A DNA stretch of 64,000 nucleotides from contig JANJGN010000017.1 in the NCBI GenBank assembly GCA_026770705.1, positions 34,596,001 through 34,660,000 of the forward strand. Reading direction: 5' to 3'. Under the pieces are notes generated by a model. It searched no databases and was not told the origin of the DNA. It was given only the letters and a program-made list of their open reading frames with translations. The stretch is from Isurus oxyrinchus. Taxonomy: Eukaryota. This document shows, piece by piece, positions 8,822 to 64,000 of this stretch. The position numbers and the translations under genes are program-made. Numbering within the stretch: position 1 is the first letter of the stretch; each line of letters begins with the position of its first letter.

Positions 8822-9412
8822 TAATAAATACAGAAAATGCTGGAAACGCGGATCTGCTCAGGCAGCCTCAATGAAGAGAAAAACAGAGTTAATGGCCTAG
8901 CTATTAACCTTCAACTATGATGGGTGGGAGAGGGTTGGTGGCAGGGGGAAAGTTTAAAAAATGAAATATGGGCAAAACAACCCTAACTCACCACGCACAG
9001 GCACCAACCAGCCCCAACTGTCAGCTTCTCCCCCTGTCCCATATGCTATCCTTCTCTCAGTCCCGTTTGTTGACCCTGCGGCCCTCTAGCTGCTCCTAAT
9101 TATGGGCCTCCTCCCATTCCTGGTTACGATCGCCAAGGGTCGTGGCTGTGACCTCCTGCTGCCAGTATTCCTTCCTGCCCACCAGCCAGGCTGTCCGTCC
9201 AGTCGACTGGCGGGTGGGAGAAGGATCTATAAAGTATTACTTGCCAGGTTTATCAACTTGTTTGGCCTCACCCCGCACCTTCCTATCTCCCTGTCATTGA
9301 CCTGAAATGTTAACTTGGTTTCTCTATCTACTAATGCTACCTGATCTGCCGAACGTTTACTGAATTTCTGTTTTAATTTCAGATTCACAGCTTCCTCATT
9401 ATTTGTTTTTTT
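8822..9412. mobile_element. Penelope terminal-repeat pair in inverted orientation around a ~370-bp unrelated spacer
   Basis: AAATACAGAAAATGCTGGAAAC...AAACAGAGTTAAT (8826-8893) versus GACCTGAAATGTTAACT...TTCTGTTTTAATTTCAGA (9299-9383). Confidence 0.6.
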
Positions 9413-10893
9413 TCAGGGTTCTCCAAAACTTTGCTGGAGATAATCAAGCATAAAACTTAGAGCTTATACTTTGGTTATATAAAGATCATTGCACTTCAAT
9501 TATAGTCGTCACCAGTTTTGGTCACCAGTTACAGCAATGGATTCTGAAGTTCTAGAAAAAGATACAGAAAATGTTAAAAATTATATTTCACCTTGTTTCT
9601 TTTAGTTACAAAGCAGGTTATACCTCTTCCTTACAATGCTAGGCTTAAGCAGTTTATTTATTGAAGTTGTGTATGTTAGATAATTTCATTTGGTCATAGA
9701 TCATTGGTAACCATGGTCTCCTGGAGTTACCTTGATTGCCTCATGTAGTTTTCTTGATTGCCTCACTACAAACATGCTAAACAGAAGAAACATTAGGCTA
9801 AGGACAGGGCTAAGTGACCCCACAACCAACGGATCAAATCAAAATTCTGCAGTTGTGCCACAGACAGTTTTGAATAAGGTGGACGATTTTTTTTTATATT
9901 CACTGCCAAGATGAGTATTTATTGCTCTTCACTAATAGCACTTGAGAAGGTGGTGGTGACCCTCCCTCTTGAACTGCTGCAGTCCATGTGGTATAGGTAC
10001 ACCTATATTGCTGTAGGGAGGGTGTTCAAGTATTATGACCCAGTCACAGTAAAGGAACAGCGATATTGTTCCAAGTCAGGGTGGTGTGTAACTTGGAGGG
10101 GCAACTTGCAGCTGGTGGTGTTTCCATATGACTATTGCTCTTGTTCTTCTAGGTGGTAGAGGTCAAGGTGTTTTGAAGGTGCTGTAGAAGGGGCCTTGAT
10201 GAGTTGCTGCTGTGTACCTTGTAGATGGTACACACTGCTGCTACTGTGCACCGGTGGTGGAGAGAGTGAATGTGTAAGATGATTAATGGATTACTCATCA
10301 AGTGGACTTCTTTGTCCAAGCTTCCTGAGTGTTGTTGAACTGCACTCATCCAGGTTAAGTGGAGGCTATTCCATCATGCTCCTGTCTTGTGCCTTGTAGA
10401 TGGCGGACAGGCTTTGGGGAGTCAAGAAGTGAGCTGCTCATCGCAGAATTTACTGCCTCTGACCTGCTTTTGTAGCCACAGTATCTATATGTCTGGTCCA
10501 GTTCAGTTTCTAGTCAATAGTAACCCCCAGGTTGGTGATGGTGGAGGATTCAGCAATGGAAATGTCCTTGATTGTGAAGAAGAGTTGGTTAGATTCTTGT
10601 TGTTTTCCTTCTGCCAGGTTGCTTTGCTCACAAACAAAGCTGCACACCTATCTACTTGTGGGTGAGTTGGCAAACAATATACAGCAAATGCAGAGACCAA
10701 TATAAGATGAAGCACATGCTGTTTATTTACACCAGTAACAGAACAGTAACACAATGCGTGCTCCTCCAACCAGACCCTATTCTAAACTACTGATTAACAT
10801 TACAGCCTGTGCTACACAGCAATTGGGTAATGCAATCACGTGGTCAATCTGCTCAACTTCTCTTAAAGGTGTGTTGCACCTCAGGTTACCACA

Positions 10894-11299: not shown

Positions 11300-14093
11300 A
11301 GCATTAACTTCACCTGATAGCTATTTGGGACCATCTCCAAAGTTCTTTGCAAAAACTATGTCTCCAACAGTGAAATTTCTTTCATGACTGTGGTAATCAT
11401 GTCCATTTTTCTGGGCCTCCTGACTTCTCTCTACCCTCCCCTCTAAATTCGGCCTTATGAGACCCAAATGTGTCCTGAGATGTCTCTTCATTAATAATTC
11501 TGCAGGGGCTATACCGGTGGTCGTGTGTGGCGTAGTCCTATAGCTGAGTAGGAAACGTGATAATCTGGTTACAATAGGGTCTGTATCAAGTTGTTTATTC
11601 CAGACATGAAGGTCTGGACTGCTCTCTCAGCCAAACCATTGGATGCAGGGTGGTATGGCGCAGTCTTAACATATGTTATGCCACTGAGACTAGTAAATGT
11701 TTGGAATTTCCCGCTGGTGAATGCCATTCCATTATCAGACACTATTACCTCTAGTAAACCGTGTATCACAAAACTCTGATGCAATCTGTCTCTGGTGGCA
11801 GGTGTGGGTGATTTCACCTTGTATACATCCATCCACTTCAAGTGAGCATCTATAAACAAGAGGAACATTGTGCCTAAAAAAGGCCCCACGTAGTCAATGT
11901 GGAGGCGGACCCATGGTCTTCCTGGCCAATCCCAGGGATGCAATGGCGCAGAAGGCAGCAATTTCTGTACCTGTTGGCACTGCATGCAGCTCTTGACTAA
12001 GTTTTCAATTTCTGTATCCATCCCCGGCTGCCATAAGTAGCTGCATGCCAACATTCTAGAGACGCCAGGGTGAGCAATATGCAATTCAGTCAATAATGGT
12101 TGTCTTCCTCTCGGAGGCACAATGACACTCGATCCCCACAGCAAGAGGCCATCCTGGCGGGTGAGCTTGTATCTCCTACTAAAATAGGGTATCATTTCAT
12201 CTGATTTTGGCTCGTTGGACCATCCCTGCAAGACTTGTTCCCTGATGTGAGACAAAACTGGATTGCGGACTTATCCACTGTTTTATTTGTTTGGCATGCA
12301 CTGATGATGAATCCAGAAAATTTACTAACAAGACAAGTTGTTGACGAATTGGGATGCTCACATTGCTGTCTTTTAGAGGTAATTGGCTCCGTGCGTCGGC
12401 ATTGGCAATCTGGCTTCCTAGCCAGCAGATAAAAGTACATTTGTAAGCAGCTAGAATCAGTGCCTACCTTTGGATGTGTGCTGAGGCAATTGGGGGTATT
12501 GCCTTGTCTTTGCTGAACAAGTGTAGTAGTGGCTTGTGGTCAGATAATGGTAAAGTGGCGACCAAAAGTATATTGGTAAAACTTCTTAACGTCAAATACA
12601 ATGGATAAGCCTTCTTTCTCTATTTGTGAGCATCTTTGTTCTGCCACACTAAGTGTTCTTGTGACGTAACCAATGGGCCGTTCAGAGTCATCCACCACCC
12701 GGAGGGAGAGAGCTGCCCCTAGCCCATAAGGGGAAGCATTGCAGGTTAAAATGAATTCTTTCTTTGGGTTGAAATGTAGCAACAGGGCCAATGAATGTAG
12801 CAACTGCTTTACTGTCATAAAAGCCTGTTGTTGTGGGGCTTGCCAAGTCCGCCTATGGCTTTGCTTGAGTAATCCGTATAATGGAGCCAGTACTGCTGAC
12901 AAATTTGGGAGAAAATGGCCATAGTAGTTAATCTTTCCCAAGAAGGACTTAGTTCTATGTCATTTTTCGGGGCTGGCACCTCACAAGAAGCTCTCACTTT
13001 GTCTTCTACTGGGCAAAGGCCCTGCAAGTCAACCCTATGATCCAGGTAAGCCACTTCTTTTGCTTGGAAGATACATTTTTCTCTTTTCAAACGTACTCCA
13101 GCTTGTGAGAAACGCATCAATACCTCTTCCAAATTAGTCAGGTGTTCGTCATCAGTTAGTCCTGTTACTAGGATATCATCGAGATAAACCACCACATGGG
13201 GTAGACCTTAAAGTAAATTTTCCATGGTCCATTGGAAAATAGCACAAGCCAATGAGACTCCAAAGTGAATCTGGTATACTGGTATAACCCCCTATGTGTG
13301 TTGATAGTCACAAAATTCCAAGAGGACTTTACTAGCTTGACTTGCTGGTAAGCGTGGCTCATGTCAAGATCCGTACATGCGGATCCCCCTGCCAGCTTGG
13401 AATACAATTCATCAATTTTTGGTATAGGATGCCTATAAAGTCTGGCCAATTTGTTAACTGTCAACTTGTAGTCCCTGCATATTCGCACACACTCTGGTCA
13501 GGCTTTAGAACTGAAACCATGGGCACTGCCTGTTTGGAAAACTGTACAGGTTTGAGACTTGCAACCTTTCCAGCCTGTCCAATTCAATATGAACTTTTTC
13601 CCGTAATGCATGTGGGACTGGCCTCACCTTCAAGTATCTGGGTGTTTGCCCTGGGATCCACCTGGATTTTAGTTTGCAGCCCCTGAATCTTCCCGAGCTA
13701 TTCCATGAACACAGAGGCATATTTTTGTAATAATTCTTGCAGATCTTTCATTCTGAGTTGAAAAATCTTGGTCCATTCCAACTTTATTTCCTTAAGCCAG
13801 TTCAAACCAAGTAGGGTTGGACCCTCCCCTGCTACCACTATCAGGGGTAAATTAATAGACTGGCTTCCATACTGTACTGGAAATGTGCACATTACTCTTA
13901 CTTGCATGTCTTCACCAGTATATGTCTTTAAGTTAGCATCTGAATTTTCCAGATTTAGTGAGTGGCTTCCTCCATTCAGATATTCAAATGTACGTACCCC
14001 TATAACTATCGTGGATGCCCCTATATCCACTTCCATTCGGATGGGTTTTCTGTTGACTTCCACTGTCATGTAAATTGGCTCTGTTTTACCCAT
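11300..14093 (-). pseudogene. pol: Gypsy pol (protease, RT, RNase H, integrase), frameshifted
   Basis: MEVDIGAS (protease), VYLDDILVTG (RT), CNASPYGLGA/SQIEKEGLSIVF (RNase H), HIAHPG..CMQC plus HIDY/VSDNG/LAERAV (integrase HHCC and DDE), spread over ORFs 11569-14093. Confidence 0.95.
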
Positions 14094-14099
14094 TTTTAA

Positions 14100-14950
14100 G
14101 TTGCGTAGTGAGTAAATATCTGACTTTGTTTCTTCTGATTCCTCTATTATGTGGATTTCACAATTTTAACCTTTTTGTTTAAAATTTTGTCTTATCCTAT
14201 TTTTACAGTATTGCATAATGTGCCCATTACATTAGCAGTAGAAACACTCAGTTCTTTTAAGTTTTCATTCATTTGCAGGTTGTCTGGATCAATTTCTGCC
14301 ATTACTAATGTGGGTTTTCTCTGTTAAACCATTGCTTTTTGCTGGTCTGTTAATGGTGGTTGTTTCCCACCTTTCCGCAGAGCACAGCATTTCAGCACCA
14401 TTTCTAACCAGTGCCTCTCTCCCGATGCAAAGGATGACACCATTTTGTGCTCCCTCGATTACTTCTGAGTCCCCGACTGCACTTTCCATTGCGAGCGCCA
14501 ACTCCAGCACCTTGCTGAAGTCTACATTTGTTTCTGACAGCAACCTGTTTTTGAATGGCACCTTTGTTAACATGTCGTTTATTGACGTCGCGAAGTCTCA
14601 GTGCTCTGTCAATTGTTTTAAGGCTGCTACATAGCAAGCGACTGTCTCTCCAGGGGTGCAACACCTTGAATTAAATTTAAAACTCTGCGTTGTTACCAAG
14701 GATTTCAGTTGAAAGTGGCTCTTTGCAAACTTTACCAACTCATCAAATCTCTTGGAAGCTAGGGTACTGGGTGCCGCTAGACTATGAATTAGGCCGTATG
14801 TTTTACTGCCACATGTCGACAAGAGGATTGCCTCCCCCTATATGTCATTGGCCAAAAAGAAGAATACAAGGTGTTCAATATATTGTGACCAGTCACTGGT
14901 GGTCTGATCAAATGGTTCGATGTGGCCAAACTGTGGCATACTGAAGGGAG
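14100..14950 (-). pseudogene. gag: Gypsy gag with CCHC zinc knuckle
   Basis: ORFs 14598-14822 (STCGSKTYGLI...FKFNSR..PGETVACYVAALKQL) and 14289-14573; CFYC*CNGHIMQYC at ~14205-14250. Confidence 0.9.
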
Positions 14951-15692: not shown

Positions 15693-16662
15693 GGTCCAGG
15701 CCCAAACATCTTCAGCTGCTTCGTCAATGGCCTATCTTCCATTATAAGGTCAGGCATGGGGATGCTCACTGACGATTGCACAATGGTCAGCACCATTTGC
15801 GACTCCTTAGATACTGAAGCAGTCCATGTCCAAAAGCAGCAAGATTTGGACAATATTCAGGCTTGGGCTGACAAGCGACAAGGAACTTTCACACTACACA
15901 AGTGTCAGACAATGACTATCTCCAACAAGAGAGAATCTAACCATTGCCCAGTTACATTCAACAGCATTACCATCACTAAATTCCCCCACTATCAACACCC
16001 TGGGGGTTATAATTGACCAGAAACTGAACTGGACTAGTCATATAAATACTGTGGCTACAAGAGCAGGTCAGAGGCTAAGAAGCCTGTGGTGTGTATCTGA
16101 CCTCCCGACTCTCCAAAGCCTGTCCACCATCTACAAGGCACAAGTCAGGAGCGTGGTGGAACACTCTCCACTTGCCTGGATGACTGCAGCTTCAACAACA
16201 CTCAAGAAGCTTGATACTGTCCAGGCAAAACAGCTCGCTTGATGGCACCCCTTCCACAAACATTCACCACCTCCATCACTGATGCACAGTGACGGCAGTG
16301 TGTACCATCAACAAAATATACTGTGGAAATTCACCAAGGCTCCTTAGGCAGCACCTTCCAAACCCATGATCACTACTAACTAAAAATACAAGGGCAGTAG
16401 ATACATGGGAACACCACCACCTGGAAATTCCCCTCCAAGCCACTCATCATCTTGACTTGGAAATATATCGCCGTTCCTTCACTGTTGCTGGGTCAAAATC
16501 CTGGAACTCCCTTCCTAACAGTACTGTGGGTGTACCTACACCACATGGACTGCAGTGCTTCAAGAAGGCAGCTCACCACCACCTTCTCGAGGGCAATTAG
16601 GGATGGGCTATAAATGCTGGCCTAACCAGCAAAGCCCACATCCTGTAAAGATTAATAAAAAG
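15693..16662 (+). mobile_element. LINE-A 5'-truncated copy, head-to-head with the previous copy
   Basis: ORFs 15582-16016 (GPNIFSCFVN...TDDCTM...WADKRQ) and 16051-16242; 3' tail AATAAAAAGAAA. Confidence 0.92.
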
Positions 16663-17210: not shown

Positions 17211-17521
17211 GTAGAAACATTTCCCAGAGCTTTGCTTAAATTAGCCACAAATATTTTCCTTCAGACAATGCTTTTGTAGGAGTTTTTATTCATAGTGGGT
17301 GGGAAGGCCGTTGCCCAGGGTTGTCCCATCTAAAGGATGGGACGGACATTGAAGGGCCTGTTGTTCTTTTCTCATCTGTATTTTCATATGTTTATTTTTT
17401 GGATCTTAATTGATATGTTTTGCGTACCTCTTCCATTTTTACTGGAAATTATGCATTCCACAGCCAGACTGGCTCAATATAACTGTAAGCAAACATAATG
17501 CTGAAGCATCTACTCAGTTGA

Positions 17522-17780
17522 AATAAAAGCAAAATACTGAGGATGTCAGAAATCTGAAATAAAAATGGAAAATGCTGGAAATACTCAGCAGGTCTGGCAG
17601 CATTTGTGGAGAGAGAGAAACAAAGTTAACATTTAAAATCAAATATGACTCTTCTTCAGAGGAGTCCTGCAGTGTTCTGAAGAAGAATCATATTCAAGTC
17701 GAAACTTTAACTCTGTTTCTACCTCTATGGATGCTGTCAGACCTGCTGAATATTTCCAGCACTTGCTGTTTCTGTTTTGA
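17522..17780. mobile_element. Fold-back element made of two inverted Penelope terminal repeats
   Basis: 17565-17660 is the imperfect reverse complement of 17677-17775; spacer ~16 nt. Each arm has a CTGAAGA...(G)AAA hammerhead-like core. Confidence 0.85.
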
Positions 17781-22698: not shown

Positions 22699-24004
22699 GG
22701 GTGGAAGTTTCTGTCCTCATTGGCATCGGGTGTCATGGCGGGTGTGAGCAGACAATATGGTGGGAAGGCCAAAAAGAGGTTTTACGCCATTGTGAAACTA
22801 GTTTGTGATCATCTGCTCTAACCGGCAATGACAGGCCTTGTTTCCCGCTGCCATGGCACATCAGGGAAGTTATTTTAATACATCTGCATAAAATGATAAG
22901 TCCTGCCCACTGGAATCATTCCCCCCCCCCCCCCCCCCCACACTGGATCATCTGGGCACGTTGTCGTTATTGCACACTGACATGTTTCACATCTGTACAT
23001 AAGCGACATGCACCTGCCGAGCAGCACTTCGCTCTGGAATTTGAGGTTTGTTTGCCTAATTTGCTTGGGGCAGCACTCACAGTCATCAGCACCAAGCTTC
23101 GCCGGCAGCACCACATCACTTTTAGGGGGGCTCACAGGCAGGTTTCTATCTACCAGACCAGCTATAAGGCGGAGGTGGCTTTTCAATGGCTGCAGGGCTA
23201 GGACTTGCTTGGAGTACGGGGGAGAAGTGGCTTCAGGCAGGGGAAGAGGCTGCAGGATGAGGGCTGTACTGGGAAAGGAGGGTATCCCAGGTGTTTTGTG
23301 AGGGGGGGCACATGTTGATCTGTGCAAGTGGCCTCAAGATGGTGAGGGCTGAGGAGGCAGTCTCCAGAGATGAGGCAGTTGGCGATGTGAGGGCGTGTGT
23401 GAGAGAGCAAATGGTGATGTCCCTTGAGCTGGCAGTAAGTGAGATGCCAGTGAATGTGTGATGGGCTTGTGAATGTGAGAGTTTAGAGTGATGAGATGGT
23501 TGCCTTACCCTGGCAGCATGGAAAAGATCATTCATCCTCTTTCTGCACTGGATGTCCAACCTCTTCTGTACAGTATTGGCATTGACCACCACTGCCACCG
23601 CCTCCCAAGCTGGAGTCATGAGGTTGCTGGACCTCCTGCGGCCAGGGGGGGCATGGATGACATCATGGTGGGCCTCCAAAAGGCATTCCAGTGACGGGTC
23701 ACTGACCTCTTCCTGACTTTCAGGGCCATGTCTTCAGTGCAGCAGTCCTAGGCTGCAAGCATTGAGAACTGTGTGTATGGCTACAGTTTAGATATGGCAC
23801 CCAGAGTGAGGAAACGGTGAGGTAACGGCCTGATGGGTGATTCAGAGGCCACCCGCCAGTGAGACAGCATGTTGCCTGTGGCTGCATAATTAATAAGGTG
23901 GGAAAGATGATATAGTATGAAAACAAGTTATTACAACCAACGGGTATAATGTCCTTTATCCCACCCACTACTACACTTACTGCAAATCTGGGACGATTCT
24001 ACCC
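22699..24004 (-). mobile_element. Non-autonomous Harbinger-type element (1.3 kb) carrying only the Myb/SANT first exon
   Basis: TAT|GGGTGGAA...TTCTACCC|TAT; ORF 23233-23679 includes AWEAVAVVVNANTVQKRLDIQCRKRMNDLFHAAR|GTAAG; colinear with 48655-49926. Confidence 0.88.
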
Positions 24005-25774
24005 TATGATTCCTTTAAATAGTGCTTGTGGAGGGCTCTTCCTGCTGCTGAACATGAGCAGCTGTGCAAAGTTAAGAGAAGGAGCTAACTTGAGCAGTGA
24101 GGTCGAAAATGACAGTGCTGGCTTCAAATAGCATTACACACTGATTGATGGCATGATCTGCCTACTCTACTTCCAGTGCACGTTCCTAATGGCCATGGTA
24201 ACACATTCAATGAAATGCTGTCTGACATGGGCTGCACCAGAACTAACCACGCACACCATTTTGCACCCATAACATCATGAGTAATGCCAGAAATAAGGCT
24301 GTTTGGAGCTGAATTTTGCAGCCATTGACTCTTTGCTAGGATACAATGCAATAGGCAACAGATGCTCTCCAGTACTTTGCTTATGCGTGGCTGTTATTGA
24401 TGTGCGACTGAAGAGTGCTGGCAAACAGTCAACAGCCAAGCCTGATACTAGTGGTGAGCAACAAGGACTTACAACATTCATACCAGTGGAGAAAGCCACA
24501 TTCAGAGTGACCTACAGAGTCTGGATTGATGCCCTAAGTTAAAATTAGATTATCCATCAAAGTACCAGGTATATGAATTCCTGTCTGTGTCATATTATCC
24601 ACTGAGCCTTAACTGATGGAAAGTGTGGTCTACATAAGATTCAGCAGATATGCTTTTATCTATGACAGCTTACCACATGGGCAGCATTACCTGCTTTACA
24701 GTACCAATGCCTGAGCAATAGATTTGATTGCAACATGTTACCTCTAGCATTTTTTTTCGCTCCAAAGGGCAACCTCAGATCTAGAGAATTAATGCATAAC
24801 ACAATGCACCTCAAGTCACTCAAACAACCACTGCCACTGTACCTGGTATCAACATAGACAGGGGACACCTGCAACCCCTAAACATAAGGAATCACCAATA
24901 CAGGAATGCTTGCTGAACCTGAAGTTGCAGATACTGTTCCTTACAAGGTGGTTTTGAGAAGTCAAAACATGAGATCCAAAATAAGAAAATGGTGACCATC
25001 GAACTTACTTTCCTGGCCCCCATGCTAGATGACAGTGTAAATGGTTCCCTCTCCTCAGCTACTGTTCCTCTTCCTTTTAAAATCTCTACATCCACCTTCA
25101 TAAAATCTTCCCTTAAACCTCCCTAACTATGCAAACTTCCAAAGCATCTTCAAGTTTTGCTTCCCCTTCAATGTGCTTGAAGTGTGATACCTCCAAAATC
25201 TGTGCCCATACTTCCTGCTACTATGCTTGAATCACCCCAATCAGCTTTCCAACCCTGTCAAAGGACCAAATGGTCCAAACCAAAGTCACAGTCGACAATC
25301 TCCATGACTATGACCTACAGCCTTTGATGCAGTTGACTAATTAATTCTCCTCTAATGCCTTACCTCCATTATCCAGTTCAGTAGGATCAACTCACACTCT
25401 TATCTATCTGACCAAACTTACAGCACCTCCAGCAATGATATCTCTTCCTGCTCCAAGACTGTGATGCCTAGACTCCCTCAAGGGTCTATTCTTGACCTTC
25501 TCCTCTTCCACATCTACATGCTGCGTCTTGATGATATCGTCCACAGTAATGGGGTCAGATTCTAAATATATGCTCCTTTACCTCTGCACCACTTCCCTTG
25601 ATGCCGCCACTGCCATTGTGCTATCAGACTGCTCATCTGGCATCCAGTCATGGGTAAGATGGAAATTCCTCAAGCTAAGCACTGGCAAAACTGAAGCCAC
25701 CATCTTTGATCCTGGCACAAATTTGTATCCTTGCCACCATGTTCCTTTCCTTGGTCACTTTTTCAGGCCAAGCC

Positions 25775-27056
25775 AGATGATGCCATTTTCCAAAACAGTT
25801 CTTCTGACATGTCTTCCTTCTTCCTTAGCCAGGGTTTTCTACCACAGTGGTTGACAGGGCCCTCAACCGTGTCCAGCCCATCTCCTGCACATCCACCCTC
25901 ACACTTTCCTCTCCCTCCCAGAACCATGATAAGGTCCCTTTGTCCTCACTTTTCACCCCACCAGCCTCTGCATTCAAAGGATCATCCTCTGCTATTTCTG
26001 CCAACTCCAGCATGATGCCACCACCAAACACATCTTCCCTTCACCCCCCCTGTTGGCATTCTGTAGGGACCATTCACTCCGGGACACCCTGATCCACTCC
26101 TCCATCACTCCCTGCACCTCAACCTCCTTCCACGGCACCTTCCCATGCAAATGCAGAAGGTGCAACACCTGCCCCTTTTCTTCCCCCCTCCTCACCATCC
26201 AAGGGCCCAAACACTCCTTTCAAGTGAAGCAGCACTTCATTTGCACTTCCCTCAACTTGGCCTACTGCAATCACTACTTTCAATGTGATCTCCTCTACAT
26301 TGGAGAGACCAAACGCAGACTGGGTGAGCGCATTGCGGAACACCTTCGGTCTGCCTGCCAGCATGACCCAGGCCTTCCTGTCGCTTGCCATTTCAACACA
26401 CCACCCTGCTCTCATGCCCACATGTCCCTCTTTGGCCTGCTACAATGTTCCAGTGAAGCTCAACGCAAACTAAAGGAACAGCACCTCGTCTCCGATTAAG
26501 CACTTTACAGCCTTCCGAACTTAACATTGAGTTCAACAACTTCAGATCATGAACTCTCTCCTCCATCCTCACCCTCCTTTTGATCCTCTTTTTTCTAGTA
26601 CTTATTTTGTATATATTTTTTTCTTTTCCCACCTATTTCTATTATTATTCTAAAAATTTATTTCCATGCATTATTTTATCTCCATATTTTAGCCTATTTT
26701 GATCCCTTCCCCCCACCCCATCCCCATTAGGGCCATCTGTCACTTGCTCATCCTGCTTTCTACCCTTAATGTTTCCATTAGCATATCCTTTAGCTAGCAT
26801 CACCACCATCAACACCCCTTTGTCCTTTTGGTTATGACATCTTTGGCAATCTCTTGTTTGCCTCCACCTATCACTGGCCCTCCAGCTCCACCTGTCCCAA
26901 ACCCCCCTCAACCAGCTTATGTTTCACCACATTTCTATTCCTCTTTAGTTCTGATGAAAGTCCATACAGACTCGAAACGTTAACTCTATCTTCGTCTCCA
27001 CAGATGCTGTCAGACCTGCTGAGTTTTTCTAGCAATTTTTTGCTTTTGTTTCAGAC
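25775..27056 (+). mobile_element. Penelope-like element 3' portion: GIY-YIG endonuclease and terminal repeat
   Basis: ORF 26053-26499 has CKCRRCNTC and NLAYC..CDLLYIGETKRRLGERIAEH (PLE GIY-YIG with Cys motifs); terminal repeat at 26945-27056. Confidence 0.92.
26947..26985 (+). ncRNA. Minimal type-I hammerhead ribozyme motif (Penelope-associated)
   Basis: AGTT-CTGATGA-a-AGTC(cataca)GACT-c-GAAAC-GTT-AACT: stem I AGTT/AACT, stem II AGTC/GACT, palindromic AACGTT stem III, GUU cleavage triplet. Confidence 0.8.
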
Positions 27057-28779
27057 ATTCTGCCAGCTTTGCATTCTACTCGACCATGATCTGAGTTTCC
27101 AACCCCATATCCTCTCCAAGGCAAATACAGCCTACTTCTCCCCACCATAATTCACCTGCCTCAGCCCTTCCATCAGTCCATCTTCTGCTGAAACCTCATC
27201 CATGCCTTTGCCATCTACAAATTCAACTATTCCAATGCTCTCCTGCTCAGCATCCCATCCTCCAGGCTTTGTTATATTCAGCTCATCCAACATATTGCAG
27301 CCTTTCTCATATCCTATTCATACTTTACCACTATTCTTTTACCTTAAATGGACGAATGGTCCACCATCATCTTCCATTTTTATCCTCAAGTTTAAATCCT
27401 TTCCTGGCTGCATCCCTTCCCATATCTATAACGTCCTCAAGTTCTAGGTCCTGGGCCTTCCCCAGCACTGAACTGCCTATGCCTCTGAGTCCAGCTCTTT
27501 TATCAGCCCCTCTCAGTGCCCCACTATCACTGACACTATGCTCTGAAATTCTGTCCCTAAACTCTACTGGCTCGCTGCCTTTCCCTTTCCTTTATGACTC
27601 CCTTTAAATCCCACCTCTTCACATATTCTATCTGAGGTATATTACATGCTTCCATTTTAACTTCATTTTTATTTTTCAACACCTCCTGGATGGGTTTTCC
27701 AAGCCTTGGGAAACCTGACAGATGAGGAGAGGTGAGAAAGTCCAGAGCCATCAGGTGAGTGCTTTTAAAGCACTGTTTGTAAGTCAGGAGGAACAAGAAT
27801 GCTTCCCCCTGGCCCACCAAGCAAACCTATTTACACACTGCTTAAGCCCCTGTGTTTGGTCACCCCAACCCACTATTCAAATCCTACAATCCAAATCCAA
27901 ATTCGGCAGTCAGTAAATCCTCCCCTGAATCTCTTCCTGGTTCAGACATATTAGTGCCAGTATCTTTGACCCTTTTTTTCCTTTCTTGTCCAAACTAGTT
28001 ATTCACACATAGGGCTCTGGACCATGACTGCATTTGCATTAGTTGTTTGCATACTGACAATGGGTCCTACAATTTGGATGATTTTGAAAGAGAGTATTGA
28101 AGGGGTAACATGCAGCTTACATTTCAGCATAGGTGCATTATGTCTGCCTAATGTTAGCCTCCCACTGACTAACACCAACAATGGTGCATTTACTTGGATT
28201 TTTCCAAGGAACTCCCTATCAATAAGCTATAATTCACCTGGGCAGCGGTGACAGAGCTGTGAAGCCAGTTGCAATTTGGCCTGTATCCAAATTGCAAGAC
28301 AGACTTTGTAGTGTCGCTGGGTGCTGAGGTGGCTTTGCATTTATAACTCGGGCTTCTTGCAGGCTGCACGGCTGCCTACAGAGTGGCTACTGCAATGCCA
28401 AAGACAGCAACTCCTCTTGCACCTACTCATGCAGCACAACACTTGATTCTATGGGCGCTCCATCACTTTTTCCTTGATTCATACAATACCTCCACATTGT
28501 TGGATTTCCTCTTTGCCATATCAGTTATTTCAACACCTCTTCCCCACCCCACTATGGCCCTTCAACCTTACACAAGGTTTGCTTCCTTCTGGATGAAATG
28601 TCTTTTAAACTTTTCTGAAGTCTGTAAATTTTCTGCACTCTTTTTTTAGTGGCCTCAACCCTTTAAATTAATACATATTTTCCAACTCCCCTTTTAACCT
28701 AACTAGCTCCCTGCAACAGGGCTAAGTTGGAGCTCTGAATAATTACGTGAATCAGTTAACCTGAGGTAATTGTCTGCTG

Positions 28780-40779: not shown

Positions 40780-41988
40780 CAGGAAGTTGTTATTGAGCTG
40801 GAGACACTCTGCTAATGGAATCTTCTAAGTATCTGACCACCTTGTCTCACGGGTATCTGGATCTTCCCGCGGATCGGCTTGCACAGCGGCTAACCCTCCT
40901 CTCCATCAGACTCGTCCTCAGCGGACTGGGCTGTCTCCATCAATTACTCCTCTGACAGGACTTCCCCTCTCTGGGGGGCAAGGTTTTGCAACGCACAATG
41001 AACAACGACCATAATTGACTCTCTCTCAGGTGCATATTAGACAGTGCCACCTGATCTGTCCAGACTTCTGAAGCACATCTTGAGCAGACCATTGATCTGC
41101 TCAGTGATCACCCTGGTCAATGTGTGGCTTTCATTATACCTATGCTCACGCTCCGTCCGTGAATTCCTTACTGTAGTCACCAGCCATTTTCAAAGGGTGT
41201 CCTTTATCACCGAGCAGCCAGCCGGCGGCTGGTAAACTGGGAGTGTCTCAGGATGTCTGCTTCATGGCTGCTTTCTGCGTAATGAGCAGACACCCGCATT
41301 ACTCCTGGATTGTGATCACACACAATCTGAACATTGATGGAGTGGTATCCTTTTCTGTTTATGATTGCCCCTGGCTGAACAGCTAGTGCTTTTATGGCTA
41401 CATGGGTGCAATCAACTGCCCCTTGTACCCGTGGGAATCCAGCCATGGCAGCAAAGCCTCTAGATGTTTCTGCTTGGTTTGTGTTGCAACATGTAAAAGA
41501 TATAATGATGGGCATAGCTAAACATGGCATCTGTGAATACCTCAATGCAGTGATTGGCTGCAGGCTGGATGATCCCATTAAGGTCTCCACATGCTGCATG
41601 GAATGACCCAGAGGCAAAGAAGCTCAATGCCACAGTGACTTTTAAGGCCTCAGGCATTGGGTGGCCACCCACACAATTCGAGGCCACCTCCCCAGAAAAC
41701 ATGTCACAAAGGGATGTGACTGTCTCCCTCAATAGACACAGTCTTCAGAGGCACAATCATTCTGACATCTACAGATAAGACATCCTGATCCTGTACACTC
41801 GGTTGGCAGGGTAAGGCCAACGCCTACCTCTGCCAGCCTGCTGTTGCTGTCTCCCCTCCACAGCCCCTTGCTCAGCAGCAGCTTGCCCACCTTTCTGCAC
41901 CTCATGGCGCACCTGTCCCTGGCCAGCTGGGCTCCTCCTCCTCCTCCACACTGGAGGAGATGCCTCCAACAGAATGGGCAATTACCAT
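40780..41988 (-). pseudogene. Harbinger (HARBI1-like) DDE transposase
   Basis: YPANRVYRIRMSYL; LKVTVALSFFASGSF; GFPRVQGAVDCTHV; INRKGYHSINVQIVCDH; SHEADIL; GDKGHPL; TRVITEQINGLLKMCFRSLD. Frameshifted. Confidence 0.93.
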
Positions 41989-42461: not shown

Positions 42462-43735
42462 AGTCTACACTCAACTATCAGCTAAGTGATGGAAGGTGCC
42501 ATCAACAATTATATCAAGCAGCACTTCCTTAGCAATAAGCTGTTCACTGATGCTCAGTTTGGGATCCACCAAAATCACTTGGCTGTAGACCTCATTATAG
42601 CCTTGGACAAACATGCCAAAAGAGCCGAATTCCAGGGGTGAGGTGACAGTAAATGCCCTGAAAATAAAGGTGGCATTTGACAGAGTGTGACATCAAGGAG
42701 CTTGAGTAAAACTGAAATCAATGGGAATAGGGGAACCTCCACTGGTTGGCGTCAAAGCTGGAACAAAGGGAGATGTGGTTGTTAGAGGTGAATCATCTCA
42801 ATCCCAGGATATCGCTGAAGGTGTTCCTCAGGGTTATGTCCTAGGACAACCAACTTCAGCTGTTTCATCAATGACCTTTCCTCAGTCATAAAGTCAGCAG
42901 TGGGGATATTCATTGATGATTACACAGTGTTCAGTACCATTCGCAACTCCTCAGATAATGAAGCGGTCCGGTGCCTACATAAAGCAAGACCTGGATAACA
43001 TTCAGATTTAGGCTGATAAGTGGCAAATAACACTGGCACCACACAAGTGCCAGGCAATGACCATTTCCAACAAAAGAGAAGCTAACTCTTTGGCATTCAA
43101 TGGCATTACCATCGCTGAATCCTTGACTATCAACATCCTGCAGGTTACCATTGACCAGAAGCTGAATTAGACCAACCACATAAATTCTGTGGTTACAAGG
43201 GCAGGTCAGAGGCTGGGAACCCTGGTGAGTAACACACTTCCTGGCTCCCCAAAGCCTGTAAAAAACTACAAGGCACAAGTCAGGAATATGACCCAATTAC
43301 CCGATAAGTGCAGCTCCAATAGCAACCTGATTGTTTTGCACTCCATGCACAACCTTAATTACTCACTGTCTCCACCACTGGTACACAGTGGCAGCAGTGT
43401 ATACTATTTGCAAAATATACTGCAGCAACTCACCAGGACTCCTTCCATGATAGCTTCCAAACACGTTCTTCACAGTGGTAGATGTCACAAGACCAGCAGC
43501 CACAATGGAACATACCAGCTGTAAGTTCCCTCCACGCCACACAACATCCTGATTTGGGAATATATCGCTGTTCCTTCACTGTCGCTGTGTCAAAATTCCG
43601 GAACTCCCTTCCTAACAGCATTGTGGGTGTATGTACATCACATGGACTGCAGCGGTTCAGGAGGACAGCTAACTATCACCTGCTTAAGGACAATTAATCT
43701 TGCCAGCAATGTCCACATCCCATGAACAAATAAAA
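42462..43735 (+). mobile_element. LINE-A 5'-truncated copy
   Basis: GGTGTTCCTCAGGG (GVPQG), TTCATTGATGAT (FxDD), WQITLAPHKCQAM, and the 3' tail. Confidence 0.9.
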
Positions 43736-46119: not shown

Positions 46120-47462
46120 TTTATTTTTTTATTTATTCACAGGATGTGGGCCTCACTGGCTGGGCCAGCATTTCTTGCCCATCCCTAGCTGCCCTTGAGA
46201 AGGTGGTGGGGAGCTGCATTCTTGAACCACTGCAGTCCATGTAGTGTAGGTACACCCACAGTACTGTTCGGAAGGGAGTTCCAGGATTTTGACCCAGTGA
46301 CACTGAAGGAACTGCAATGCATTTCCAAGTCAGGATGGTGAGTGACTTGGAGGGGAACATCCAGTTGGTGGTATTCCCAACTACCTGTTGCCCTTGTCCT
46401 TCTAGATGGTAGTGGTCATGGGTTTGGAAGGTGCTGTCTAAGGAGCCTTGGTGAATTCCTGCAGTGCATCAGATGCTGAAAATGTCCATGCCCAAAGGCA
46501 GCAAGCCCTGGATAACATCCAGGCTTGGACTGACAAGTGGCAAGTAACATTTGCACCACACAAGTGTCAGGCAATGACCATCTCCAACAAGAGAAAATCC
46601 AACCATCACCCCCTGATGTTCAATGGCATTACCATCACTTAATTCCCCACTATCAACATCCTGGGGGTTACCATTGACCATAATTGAACGGGACTAGCCA
46701 TATAAATACTGTGGCTACAAGAGCAGGTCAGAGGCTAAGAATTCTGCGATGAGTATCTCACGTCCTGACTCCGCAAAGCCTGACCACCATCTACAAGGCA
46801 CAAGTCAGGAGTTTGGTGGAATACTCCCCACTTGCCTGGATGAGTGCAGCTCCCACAATACTCAAGAAGCTTAACACTGTCCAGGACAAAGCAGCCCATT
46901 TGATTGGCACCACATCCATGAACATTCACTCCATCCACCACCGACGCACAATAGCAGCAGTGTATACCATCTACAAGATGCACTGCAGGAATTCACCAAG
47001 ACTCCATAGACAGCACCTTCCAAACCCACAACCAATATCTAGAAGGACAAGGGCAGCAGATAGATGGGAATACCAGCACCTGTTAGTTCCTCTCCAAGTC
47101 ACTCACCATCCTGACTTGGAAATATATCACTGTTCCTTCACTGTCGCTGGGTCAAAATCCGGGAACTCCCCCCTATCAGCACCGTGGTTGTATCTACACC
47201 ACATGGACTACGGCACTTCAAGAAGGCAGCTCACCACCACCTTCCCAAGGGCAATAAATGCTGGCCCAGCCAGCAAAGCCCACATCCTGTGAGTGAATAA
47301 AAAAAATCTTGTAGATGGTACACACTGCTGCTACTGTGCTATTTTTGTGGTGGAGGGAGTGAATGTTTGTGGATGTGGTGCCAATCAAGCGGGCTGCTTT
47401 GTCCTGGACGGTGTCAAGTTTCTTGAATGTTGTGGGAGCTGCACTCATCCAGGCAAGTGGAA
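46120..47462 (-). mobile_element. LINE-A 3' copy (46120-46470 and 47306-47462) split by another LINE-A
   Basis: CTGCAGTGCATC | TTGTAGATGGTACAC rejoin as the family antisense sequence. Confidence 0.88.
46471..47305 (+). mobile_element. LINE-A copy inserted antisense into LINE-A
   Basis: ORFs 46448-46642 and 46813-47292; A-tail; apparent ATC duplication. Confidence 0.9.
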
Positions 47463-48654
47463 AATCATACTGTCAAATCATACTGTTCCTGCCATATGAG
47501 GGTTGGAGGGTTTAAAATCTAGTCCTATCTGTTTGATCTTGTGAGGTGCCATACCTCCTTATTTAAAGTTTTTTTTTCAGTGCATGAATTTGTATTTTAT
47601 TTAGGCTTATGACCTCCTTAGTATTTCTTTTACAGAAGGCCATTTTTCCCTGGGGCCCAGGATGACAGCAGACGTCCCAGCCTTAACTTCCTCCAGTGCA
47701 ATGAGGAAAATCCAGTCTGTGATATTCACCACATTCATTCACCAGGGTGCATCTTCTGGTTTATATTCTAGGAGCAGCAGTCAGCTGAAGACAGTCTGCC
47801 CAATATACAGATCTACAAATGTCTAAACATGTGGCTTGTACAATTTTGAATAAGACCCTAGATCCTACCTTTGTAGTAGTTCTGTGATTTCAAATTAGGT
47901 CACAATGTGCGTATTAGTACTAATTACTATTACTACTCCCACCCCCACTTTTTGCAGGAATCTGCTAGTTTAGATTGCTTTTAGCACTTCACAATGGCTG
48001 CCTTGACGAGATTGATTTAAACTCTGTTCCACATAGTATATAAATAACTCTCTAGAATGTATTCTTTGACACTGGCCTTTGCCAAAGCAAACACAATTTA
48101 ACAAAACAGACTTCAGATCTAAGTGAGATTAAAAACACTGTCTAGATTGTCTTAATTATTTAATGAGATTGAGATATCAGTGTATGCACAGCTGCCATAT
48201 GTGGTATAAGATTCTTTTTTTAACCACAGATGAACCCTACAAAATAAGCAGTGAATGACAAAGCTACTAGTTGGTAATGCTGATCAATTCAAAAATTAAG
48301 TAAAAATACCAACTGGATGCTGTGCATTCTGTTCATTTTGAGCTGAGGGGCATGTGTACGATTTTGATACCTCAGTTTTATCACAGAACCAAGGAAGCAC
48401 AGTGTGCAGCACCCTTCCACATTACCAGAGTGGTGGTTTCTTTTCTCTTATTCATGTGCAATAAGATTGATGAAATAGCAGTTCCCTCAGATGGTTTTAG
48501 TGGGAAATTTCTTTGTTGAAACAATAGTCAGTGCCAAAACAGATTTCCTCAGAAGAAATGTAAAATTAAATGTAGCATGGTCCTGACATTGGATGGTAAA
48601 ACTTTGCTTTTTGTTATTGTAGGCAGTGCAGTGAACAACTTTTTCAGAAATATT

Positions 48655-49926
48655 GGGCAGAATTTTCTGTGCCCGCTAGCGTCAGGCGTGCACAGCAGTA
48701 TGAGCAGACAATATGGTGAGAAGACCAAAAATCGGTTTTGCAACGTCATGAAACCAGTTCGCGATCGTCCACTTAGCCCGTCGATGGCAGGCCATGTTCC
48801 CCACCATTGGACATCAGGAATCTCATTGTAATGCAGCTACATATCATTGTAAGGCCTGCCCGCCGGAATTATCTCCCCCACCCCCCCAACGCTGGACCGT
48901 CCACCCACGTCGGCGTGATTGCATGCCAACATGTTTCACTAGTGCACAGAAGTGGCGTGCATCTGGTGAGCTGCACTTTGCTTGGGATTTTGATGTTTGT
49001 TTGCCTATCTTGCTTCGGGCAGTACTCAACATTTATCAGTGCCAGGCTTTGCAGGCAGCACCACAGCACTGTTAGGCGGGGGGGGCTCACGGGCAGGTCT
49101 CTACCTACCAGACCAACCATAAGGCAGGGTTGGCTTCGTACGGCTGCAGGGCTAGGTCCTGCTTGGGGAAGGGGGAACAGTGGCCTGAGGCAAGGAAAGA
49201 GGGTGAGAGGGTATCTCAGGGTTTGGGTGGGAGCACAAATTGATTGTGCAAGTAGCCTCAAGATGGTGAGGGATGAAGGGGCAGTCTCTGGAGCAGATGA
49301 GGCCAAATGGAGATGTGAGGGTGCGTGTGAAAGAGTGAGTGGTGATGTCCCCTGAGCTGGCAGTGAGTGAGCTGCCAGTGAATGTGTGATGGGCTTGAGT
49401 GTGTGAGTTTAAGACTGATGACATGGCTGCCTTACCCTGGCGGCAGGGATGAGATCATTCATCCTCTTCCTTCGTTGGATGGCCAACCTCTACTGTTCAG
49501 CATTGGCACTGATCACTACTGCCATCGCCTACCAAGGTAATGTTGCTGGCCCTCCTGCGGCCAGAGCAGGGGTAGAGGATAGTTCACTGGGCCTCAACAG
49601 CATCCAAAAGGCACTCAAGGGGCGCATCACTAAACCGGGGGCTGCAGTCTTCTTACCTTTCAAGGCCATGTCTTATTTGCAGCAATTCTGGGCTGAAAAC
49701 ACTGAATGGTGTGCGCACAGCTGTACTTTAAATGTGGCGCCCGACGTGACGAAGCGGCGAGGTGATGGCCTGGCGGGAGAATCGGAGCCCGCCCGCCTGC
49801 CATCGAAATGGTGTGTTTCCCGGGAATGCATAATTAATGCAACGGGTTTGGGATGATTCGACGTGAGAAGTCGACATTGCGGCCGGCAGGTAAAACACTT
49901 AGTGCAAATCTGGGACGATTCTGCCC
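48655..49926 (-). mobile_element. Non-autonomous Harbinger-type element (1.27 kb) with Myb/SANT exon, second copy
   Basis: ATT|GGGCAGAAT...ATTCTGCCC|ATT; minus strand MALKGKKTAAP/(R)FSDAPLECLLDAVEA...AIQRRKRMNDLIPAAR|GTAAG. Confidence 0.92.
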
Positions 49927-55174: not shown

Positions 55175-56457
55175 ACATCAACAGTGCTATTAAGCGGCAC
55201 TTGCTTAGAAATAACCTGCTGACTGACGCCCAGTTTGGGTTCTACCAGGGCCACTCAGCTCCTGACGTCAATGAACAAAAGAGCTGAACTCCCAAGGTGA
55301 GGTGAGAGTGACTTCCCTTGACATCAAGGCTGCATTTGACCGCGTGTGGTTCAAGGAGCTCCAGAAAAACTGGAGTCAATGGGAATCAGGGAGAAAACTC
55401 TTCACTGGTTGGAGTCATACCCAGCACAAAGGAAGGAGGTTGTGGTAGTTGGTTGTCAGTCATCTCAGCAACAGGACATCACTGCAGGAGTTCCTTAGGG
55501 TAATTTCCTCAGCCCAACCATCGTCAGCTGCTTCATCAATGACAGTTCTTCCATCATAAGGTCAGAAGTGGGGATGTTCGCTGATGATTGCACAATGTTC
55601 AGCACCATTTGCAACTCCTCAGATACTGAAGCAGGCCATGTCCAAAGGCAGCAAGACCTGGACAATATTTAGGCTTGGGCTGACAGGTAGCAAGTAACAT
55701 TCGCAACACACAAGTGCCAGGCAATGACCATGTTTAACAAGAATGTAACCATTGCCCCTTGACGTTGAATGGTATTACCATCATTGAATCTCCCAATATT
55801 AGCATCCTGAGGGTTACCATTGACCAAAAATTGAACTGGACTAACTATATAAATACTGTGGCTACAAGAGCAGGTCAGAGGCTAGGAATCCTATGACAAG
55901 TAGCTCACCACCCAAATCCCCAAAGCCTGTCCACCATCTACAAGGCACAAGTCAGGATTGTGATGGAGCACTCTCCATTTGCCTGGATGAGTGAAGCTCC
56001 AACAACACTCAAGAAGCTTGACATCATCCAGTCTGCTTGATTGGCACCACATCCACAAACATTCACTCCCTCCACCACCGATGCACAGTAGCAGCAGTGT
56101 ACTGTCTACAAGATGCACTGCAGGAATTCACCAAGGCTCCTTTGATAGCATCTTCCAAACCCAAGACCACTTCCATCGAAAAGGACAAGGGCAGCAGATA
56201 GATGGGAACACCACCACCTGGAAGTTCCTCTCCAAATCACTCACTATCCTGACTTGAAAATATATCACCGTTCCTTCACTGTCACTGGGTCAAAATCCTG
56301 AACTCTCTTCCTAACAGCACTGTGGGTGTACCTACACCACATGGTCTGCAGCAGTTCAAGAAGGCAGCTCACCATCACCTTCTCAAGAGCCACTAGGAAT
56401 GGACAATAAATGCTGGCCCAGCCAGCGAAGCCTATTTCCTGTGAATAAATAAAGAAA
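55175..56457 (+). mobile_element. LINE-A 5'-truncated copy
   Basis: NNLLTDAQFG, DIKAAFDRV, MFADDC and the 3' tail AATAAATAAAG. Confidence 0.92.
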
Positions 56458-56739
56458 ATGTCCCATTGTATTCTTCCATATAGAAAAAAAATTGTGTTAA
56501 TCAGTTAAAGCTGTTATTAATTTTCACACAGAGGTGATGCTGTTCAAGTCTCCGCAGAATGTGTGAAGCAAGTCATGGAATCATATAGCACAGAAGGAGA
56601 CCATTTGGCCCATTGTGCCTGTGTTGTATCTTTGAAAGGGCTTTCCAATTAGATGTACAGTTGTGCTCTTTCCCCATACGCCTGATTTCTTTTCATTTCT
56701 GTATCTGAGCACATTCTGCTATAATTGCTGATCCAATTC

Positions 56740-62806: not shown

Positions 62807-63720
62807 CCTCTTTTGATAAAGAGGGGTGATGGGAGTTGAAAAGGGAAGCCCCAGAGCACAAGGCACAAAAGATAGATGGTAAAGCAGGTGTCAAGAGCAA
62901 AAATAAGCTAATTCAGCTTTGTGTCACTTCTTGCAAATACCCTTTAATTCTTCAAATTCACTTCAGCTTTGTCTGTCGTGCTTGGCACCTTGGATACCTG
63001 TTTTACATGGGAGTGATCGGTACTGAATGTAAATTTGGCAGCAAGAGCGGAAGACAGGCATATAACATCATCACATCCTTACCACCTTACATATTAATGT
63101 CCACACATTTAAGGAAGGTACTTCCAGCAACTGCCAGGAATAACAACAGAAAATTGAGGAAATGTTAAAATGGGTGGGGATCCTGTGTGACAGACACTTT
63201 CTCCTAACTGTTTAAATATTCCCCAACCCATGCACTGTTCACATAATCCGGACTGCCCTGTGGCATTTGTTTCATCAACTAAACTTAGACATGCATTGTA
63301 GTAAAATACAAGTAGCAAACTTCTGCAGGCAGCAGGCAAACTGTAAGTCATTCAGTTGGGAATTAAGTTATCATTGACTGCATGATATATTGTACAATGG
63401 CATGAAAACACAAAGTCATACATGTTTAACGACTAATCAATGATGATATCATACCTCACTATCCATCCAAAACAAATAAATCTTCAGGGATGGGTAGTAT
63501 TCATGGTATGGTGCTGAAAGAGATACGGAATGAGAACTATGAGGTGCTGATGACCATTTGGAAACACTCAATGTACACTGGGAGCCCATATTAGATCATA
63601 AATAAGCCAACATGGTATCCAATAGCAAAATGATTGGTAAGATAGACCCACCTATTTGTTGTGGTGACTAGATGAAACCAGCTTCTTAGCTACTTGTGAA
63701 GTGTGGAAATGACTAGCAAT

Positions 63721-63755
63721 GTTCTGATGAAAGGTCATCAACCTGAAACATTAAC
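63721..63755 (+). ncRNA. Minimal hammerhead ribozyme motif in a solo Penelope terminal repeat (repeat extends to ~63845)
   Basis: GTT-CTGATGA-a-AGGT(catca)ACCT-GAAAC-ATT-AAC; core boxes intact, triplet G changed to A (CpG decay). Confidence 0.72.
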
Positions 63756-64000
63756 TCTATTTCTCACTTTCCAGATGTTGCATGACCTGCTGAGCATTTC
63801 TGGCATTTTCTGTTTTTAATTCAGCTATCCAGCATCTGCAGTACTGGTGAGTTCTACATCTCCAATCAAAAAACAGATCTGACACCAGAATTCCAGTTAA
63901 CAGGGAATTCCACTTAGTAGAGTACTGGGTGACAGAAATTTTATCATATTTTGCTTTCATACTCATGTTCCTTTGTTGGTTTCTGCTATGGAAAAGAAAA

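Follow-up and report, generated by a model that had tools for sequence, protein, structure and literature searches.

The window, meaning the whole 64,000-nt stretch of DNA that was analysed, contains a damaged Penelope-like element (PLE) with the following features.

25776–27055, + strand: 5'-truncated, frameshifted PLE copy with the end of the RT region, linker, GIY-YIG and 3' terminal repeat (tblastn; alignment of window copies)
25774–25777, + strand: CAGA, found again at 27052–27055; candidate 4-nt target duplication or microhomology, which at 4 nt may be chance (junction sequences)
26146–26172, + strand: CX4CXXC cysteine linker of Neptune/Nematis type (C72, C77 and C80 of the frame starting at 25933)
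26263–26552, + strand: decayed GIY-YIG endonuclease (homology; the frame breaks near 26490, and the homologous frame ends in a stop at 26550–26552)

The host element

Using shark and ray proteins, tblastn matches were obtained from 25776 to 26490 in three successive frames, the best stretch being 25936–26490 (57%, E 9e-59). Since the matches begin only at 25776 and pass through three frames, the PLE copy is 5'-truncated and frameshifted, and has no RT core. For the 25933–26496 frame, 51 longer homologues were identified among 238 candidates; the best five include four ray or shark proteins (50–58%), and the other named homologues are mostly echinoderm and coral proteins.

The three linker cysteines are invariant, or nearly so, among 13 aligned proteins. 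In the available text of Craig et al. 2021 (PMC8557442), a CX2-5CXXC linker is described in Neptune and Nematis elements and as absent from Penelope/Poseidon; we infer that the element is Neptune-like. Three of the four residues of the endonuclease's CCHH motif are kept, while the first cysteine, nearly invariant in relatives, is a tyrosine here. GIY-YIG membership is established via homology (57% to relative P0003, which is itself above the Pfam GIY-YIG cut-off), the Pfam match of the window piece alone being weak and below the cut-off (E 0.12–0.14). P0003 and a second relative, P0012, join RT and GIY-YIG in one protein. The GIY-YIG Penelope context proposed in the preliminary description is borne out by this homology to shark and ray PLE proteins.

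Alignment with the other window copies places the end of the element near 27055. The left flank matches RVT_1 at E 0.19 and another RT in the window by tblastx at E 0.059; no homologue was found for the right flank. Judged from their sequence, the flanks may be the two parts of an older, putatively L2-like LINE RT that was split.

Anatomy of the hammerhead motif

Approximately 400 nt downstream of the GIY-YIG stop, on the same strand, both the sequence and a covariance model identify a minimal type-I hammerhead motif at 26947–26985. It lies in the PLE terminal repeat, whose matching 5' repeat was lost through truncation. The motif had been assigned to the 3' end of the element; it is indeed in the 3' region, within the terminal repeat, but about 75 nt inside the end rather than at it. 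Its parts are listed below.

26947–26950, + strand: stem I 5' strand, AGTT (sequence, model alignment)
26951–26957, + strand: core box C3–A9, CTGATGA (sequence, model; kept in related DNA-run contigs save for free position 7)
26958, + strand: extra nucleotide A between A9 and 10.1; the G10.1 expected next is missing (model deletion)
26959–26973, + strand: stem II remnant AGTC, loop CATACA and GACT, with C11.1 (26973) unpaired (sequence, model, fold)
26974–26981, + strand: GAAA box, palindromic C15.2–G16.2 without helix III, and GUU triplet (sequence)
26982–26985, + strand: stem I 3' strand, AACT, overlapping a second palindrome, GTTAAC, at 26979–26984 (sequence, fold)
26986–27055, + strand: conserved stretch 3' of the predicted cut; the optional tail of other copies is absent here (alignments)

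A re-reading of the sequence and the independent model alignment agree with the boxes and stems placed here previously. The stem II halves occupy 26959–26962 (AGTC) and 26969–26972 (GACT) and are followed by C26973. The GAAA box (26974–26977) is overlapped by the palindrome AACGTT (26976–26981), which reads as the loop-less AACGUU without an intramolecular helix III noted earlier. The palindrome ends in the triplet GTT (26979–26981), whose placement agrees with the cut expected after 26981. This arrangement of GAAA, palindrome and GUU fits the consensus in the supplement to PMC4209133, as far as that supplement is available.

Features of minimal hammerheads found at the site include the CUGANGA core box, an extra nucleotide before 10.1 (A26958, in the family register), a helix II of 4 bp or more (AGTC/GACT), separated from the core by an unpaired C, the GAAA box, a palindromic 15.2–16.2 with no helix III, an NUH triplet and a short helix I. 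The exception is the G10.1–C11.1 pair closing helix II, which is named as a hallmark of minimal hammerheads in the available text of PMC4209133. Since this hallmark is missing, the 26947–26985 copy is, on sequence grounds, filed as a decayed homologue and not as a complete member of the class.

The GTTAAC palindrome at 26979–26984, which overlaps the helix III palindrome, is common to the repeat family and is predicted to form a competing, non-productive dimer. Following the motif, 26986–27055 holds two pyrimidine tracts, each with a terminal CAG; an ATG near 27003 immediately follows the first. These tracts resemble splice acceptors or the start of a next tandem ORF.

Detection of the motif

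A covariance model built from metagenome PLE loci only, with no window sequence, matched 26943–26989 at 24.4 bits (E 1.6e-5, E-values being rough by the tool's own statement) and placed a deletion at 10.1. The hammerhead search suggested as a check had a divided outcome. The independent model finds the site; Rfam gave nothing at gathering score across the whole window and no hammerhead family match at E up to 10 in 26800–27100, and a strict minimal-hammerhead descriptor had no match in the 64,000 nt. A loosened descriptor matched the window twice (26951 and 63724), compared with a mean of 0.01 matches in 500 dinucleotide shuffles, five of which contained any match. This descriptor was loosened post hoc to admit the site, which is why the separate test with the independent model was run.

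Relatives in metagenomes

The metagenome scan with protein alignment retained 80 of 294 confirmed loci, in which the strict descriptor found 12 motifs, all with the extra A and G10.1–C11.1. Strict matches on the coding strand and no more than 600 nt downstream were present in 9 of 48 loci and in none of 50 shuffles; searching for the boxes alone gave matches in 41 of 59 loci. Alignment of 33 motifs (11 plus-strand strict matches and 22 boxes-only motifs of similar spacing and distance) gave 29 distinct rows, in which both partners change in seven of the eight pairs. The covariation score was 0.668, compared with 0.213 in shuffles (0 of 500 reached the observed score) and at most 0.143 when the alignment was slid; boxes-only motifs of other spacing were excluded, so that the partly pairing-selected alignment favours structure. 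G10.1–C11.1 is kept in 27 of the 29 rows. Among the training sequences is a family that matches the motif given for Acropora digitifera in the supplement of 2014 (PMC4209133).

When loci with at least 450 nt downstream were considered, 35 of 49 had a coding-strand model match near the endonuclease end, the other 14 having none at the expected place. Among loci outside the training set, the figure was 10 of 24. Eleven inverted model matches were found upstream in metagenome loci.

These results bear on whether the motif could be a chance resemblance in repeat DNA, with no hammerhead ancestry. Such a resemblance would fit the lack of an Rfam hammerhead match and the predicted lowest-energy fold of the site, which is not a hammerhead. 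However, the independent model match, the same position in related elements, the covariation in relatives and the rarity of loosened-descriptor matches in shuffles (5/500) largely refute it, and we regard it as barely credible. Homology and the model match together uphold the original class call of a minimal type-I hammerhead of a GIY-YIG PLE. Judged from sequence, the motif is of a kind that would work like, and descends from, the metazoan PLE minimal hammerheads.

Several further observations were made in this set. About half of the 62 model matches carry C at core position 4 (CCGA for CUGA), and 25 of the 62 read CCGACGA; examples of C4 loci are L001:2394, L003:1881, L007:1337, L023:2703, L043:2644, L049:1736, L050:2088, L064:1495 and L079:587, among others. 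Supplement file 2 of PMC4209133 does not contain the CCGA form, and U4C is described as a weak but viable viroid variant in the available text of PMC3088659. The C4 subfamily may be a natural variant of the hammerhead core. In addition, loci L038, L039, L040 and L048 share an identical-scoring motif with an ATGAAGA core approximately 970 nt after the endonuclease end, much farther downstream than in other relatives.

Searching by DNA motif gave no copies of the repeat in viral contigs or in metagenome contigs. One bacterial-genome match and two viral-contig matches shared the motif alone and were judged to be chance. A protein search of viral contigs gave 27 pattern matches, of which none was confirmed.

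The repeat family and loss of G10.1

Contigs of four public runs (two of DNA and two of presumed RNA) were placed on 26860–27160 at a likeness of at least 80%, a cut that favours conservation. The DNA runs contributed 32,150 and 22,247 contigs and the presumed RNA runs 2219 and 1614. The numbers in the DNA runs indicate that the repeat is abundant, in agreement with the proposal that a high-copy repeat disperses the ribozyme motif.

Position 26959 is G in 72% and 64% of the summed depth of the two DNA runs, a measure that does not count copies and in which contig letters are unphased. The loose-end consensus from three runs reads GAGTC, a 5-nt loop, GACTC and GAAAC. No core position besides free position 7 has another letter at 10% or more in the DNA runs, and C11.1 is T in 12% and 2% of their depth. 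Given the G majority at 26959, what had been described as an A–C mismatch closing stem II is better read as a lesion of the 26947–26985 copy, namely the loss of G10.1, to which the model gap at 10.1 also points.

DNA runs carrying two organism labels both contain the 3' junction of the element (0 and 1 differences in 148 nt), which shows that they have the insertion in common. Long relatives are approximately 80–92% alike. The junction bin at 27058–27068 has no depth in the presumed RNA runs, whose contigs report presence only and are not evidence of silence.

A shared insertion whose hammerhead core is intact while its ORF is broken might suggest that the host has kept the copy in order to regulate one of its own transcripts by cleavage. 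We consider this very improbable, as drift would be expected to produce the stem II defect and 39 mostly intact nucleotides are unremarkable when long relatives are ~80–92% alike. Furthermore, the Pfam matches among 32 ORFs of the window are to mobile-element domains, besides two weak ones far below the cut-off.

Copies of the 3' end within the window

Eight copies of the PLE 3' end were identified in the window by nhmmer, the 26947–26985 copy included. The other seven are as follows.

63721–63843, + strand: copy starting at stem I; A–U closes stem II; G16.2 changed to A (27.9 bits, E 1e-6)
2282–2378, + strand: copy with A6 and G12 changed (14.9 bits, E 0.032)
17674–17777, + strand: copy with broken stem II, head to head with 17513–17660 (11.4 bits, E 0.55)
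17513–17660, − strand: tailed copy, G12 changed (nhmmer, alignment)
9297–9415, + strand: copy with the 3' half of the motif only (nhmmer, alignment)
8823–8915, − strand: copy with a heavily decayed motif (nhmmer, alignment)
1845–1968, − strand: tailed copy without a recognisable motif (nhmmer, alignment)

The model match to the first of these spans 63716–63760. In each of the seven, a core letter has changed, the palindrome is broken or half of the motif is missing; the 26947–26985 copy has the best preserved core of the eight. Related motifs are dispersed through the window as previously reported.

The same damage affects the claim of two stem II types with compensatory change. None of the AGGTC/GACCT stems cited at 2281, 9295 and 63721 is whole: the 2282 copy reads AGGTC/GACTT, the 63721 copy reads AGGTC/AACCT, and at 9295 the 3' half stands alone, with no CTGANGA box. 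With the cited stems not intact, and with a U before GAAA that may be CpG decay, compensatory change is not supported by the window copies. That U before position 12 could have arisen in the same way as the C15.2–G16.2 changes. An A–U pair closes stem II in two window copies, which hints at a second subfamily.

Three head-to-head pairs are present (1845–1968 with 2282–2378, 8823–8915 with 9297–9415, and 17513–17660 with 17674–17777); as their members are on opposite strands, no cis dimer is possible. Opposite-strand PLE pairs are noted in PMC4209133 and inverted neighbours in PMC8557442, each in its available text. The pair at 17513–17777, with copies 13 nt apart, forms a long imperfect inverted repeat with both motifs central. 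Within 25700–27150, no repeat of the motif was found, and the same-strand copy nearest to 26947–26985 is 9.3 kb off and broken.

In all seven copies where position 17 could be placed, the sequence continues 64–115 nt past it, falling into a short class (64–75 nt; four copies, including the 26947–26985 copy) and a tailed class (91–115 nt; three copies). As all seven extend past the predicted cut, their templates were likely uncut. Three of the eight copies start within a few bases of stem I (63721, + strand; 17674, + strand; 17660, − strand), and such starts could be the trace of RT stopping there or of a short non-autonomous unit.

Cleavage mechanism and activity

In the published model (PMC4209133, available text), two motifs pair via the palindrome to form helix III; a single minimal hammerhead was not cleaved, while dimers were cleaved weakly and slowly. 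Cleavage of an anole PLE hammerhead took place only after the element's own protein was added, and it was dispensable for insertion (PMC11167929, available text). In the same element, uncut RNA was the insertion substrate, and RNA-seq gave no reads with ends at the site.

For an intact parent element here, transcription of tandem copies would bring two motifs together, and their ACGU palindromes would pair and supply helix III. Cutting of each motif after its GUH triplet would then be slow and would probably require the element's protein. The 26947–26985 copy was probably reverse transcribed from RNA uncut at the motif, as it runs ~75 nt past the site. The 25776–27055 copy would have been 5' truncated, inserted into an older LINE-like repeat, and would since have drifted.

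With a probability of roughly 0.86, we read the site as a minimal type-I hammerhead that has decayed within its PLE terminal repeat and is most likely inert where it stands. Activity of this copy, implied by the original proposal, is disfavoured by the missing G10.1, the minor share of hammerhead stems in predicted folds and the lack of an intact same-strand partner nearby. In the 39-mer, predicted pair probabilities are 0.03–0.05 for stem I and ~0.10 for stem II. The two-strand prediction gives −15.6 kcal/mol in all for the GUUAAC duplex compared with −8.1 for the helix III arrangement (stem I uncounted), although folding energies (z 0.25 at this site) are poor guides for hammerheads.

An unlikely alternative is that the site remains a weakly active ribozyme, in which A26958/C26973 is tolerated and which cuts in trans with transcribed copies or with the protein of an active element. 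Neither the boxes nor the palindrome nor either 4-bp stem is damaged, a self-duplex of AACGUU has a predicted energy of −3.5 kcal/mol, and partners may be transcribed, given the 2219 and 1614 presumed-RNA-run contigs on the stretch. Protein-assisted cleavage has a precedent in the anole element (PMC11167929). Moreover, engineered hammerheads without any helix II pair are reported to retain some activity (PMC544870, available text), so the loss of G10.1 need not abolish cleavage. However, the G10.1–C11.1 hallmark (PMC4209133) is nearly fixed in relatives, and the competing GUUAAC duplex is predicted to be lower in energy. Even intact dimers are slow (PMC4209133), and only one of nine Xenopus dimer elements was cleaved, eight remaining uncleaved, in the available text of bioRxiv 10.64898/2026.07.22.740005.

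It is also conceivable, but quite improbable, that the family forms a dispersed, retroelement-controlled cleavage system, in which numerous hammerhead halves are scattered through a cartilaginous-fish genome and the transcribed ones, the mismatched 26947–26985 copy among them, pair in trans or are activated by the PLE protein and cut the host RNAs that contain them. The proposed carrier would be a non-autonomous unit of ~110–150 nt starting from stem I, where three of the eight window copies start.

Comparison with known systems

This kind of motif has been known since 2014 (PMC4209133, available text), and the repeat family adds to the known metazoan PLE minimal hammerheads. In common with those described there by Cervera and de la Pena, the motif has CUGANGA, an extra nucleotide after A9, a short helix I, GAAA, a palindromic 15.2–16.2, no helix III and an NUH triplet, GUU being found in many of their listed examples. 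Both also occur mostly as single copies in truncated PLEs, with opposite-strand pairs 100–700 bp apart. By contrast, C11.1 has no partner in the 26947–26985 copy because G10.1 is missing. A search of supplement file 2 of that paper for names of sharks, skates or chimaeras gave no match.

The anole Poseidon element PAc (Frangieh et al. 2024, PMC11167929) likewise carries its motif in the terminal repeat, uses uncut RNA as template and has genomic copies that end well beyond the motif, with an optional tail of 30–40 nt. However, PAc is intact and, in the available text, belongs to the Penelope/Poseidon clade without the cysteine linker, whereas the window copy has the linker and no RT core. Neptune/Nematis EN+ PLEs (PMC8557442, available text) share with the window copy a C-terminal GIY-YIG, a CX2-5CXXC linker, a CCHH motif (three of its four residues in the window copy), a hammerhead in the pLTR and inverted 5'-truncated neighbours; the window copy differs in having lost the first CCHH cysteine and in having no RT core for clade placement.

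Vertebrate non-LTR retrozymes (bioRxiv 10.64898/2026.07.22.740005, available text) are also type-I hammerheads from PLE terminal repeats and were present in the one chondrichthyan genome sampled. They form tandem arrays, unlike the single copy attached to a GIY-YIG remnant here. A retrozyme array at this locus was rejected on the lack of a motif repeat within 25700–27150 and on the distance (9.3 kb) and broken state of the nearest same-strand copy.

In the literature searched, which had most subscription papers outside its reach, no description of the shark family was found. Short PLE hammerhead variants that cleave as dimers have reportedly been described by Lunse, Weinberg and Breaker (RNA Biol 14:1499), and these may already include shark examples.

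Taken alone, the 26947–26985 site matters little, being one worn copy of a described motif. The family is of modest use for the question of what PLE hammerheads do in vivo (PMC4209133, PMC11167929, PMC8557442): with very many copies of graded age, core retention can be compared between young and old copies, and RNA ends can be looked for at the predicted cut.

Other mobile-element remnants in the window

Several other remnants are present in the window. A broken LTR-retrotransposon pol lies on the − strand at 11572–14165, where Pfam matches fragments of protease, RT, RNase H and integrase that are split among separate frames. Myb/SANT-like and DDE_Tnp_4 pieces occur at 23236–23733 and 41210–41623, both on the − strand; these suggest remnants of Harbinger-type DNA transposons. 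The region 22698–23894 matches 48654–49838 at 73%. Another LINE-like 3' end has many copies with 70–87% identity (9914–10604, 15700–16659, 42500–43735, 46124–47307 and 55176–56458), several of which contain inverted pieces.
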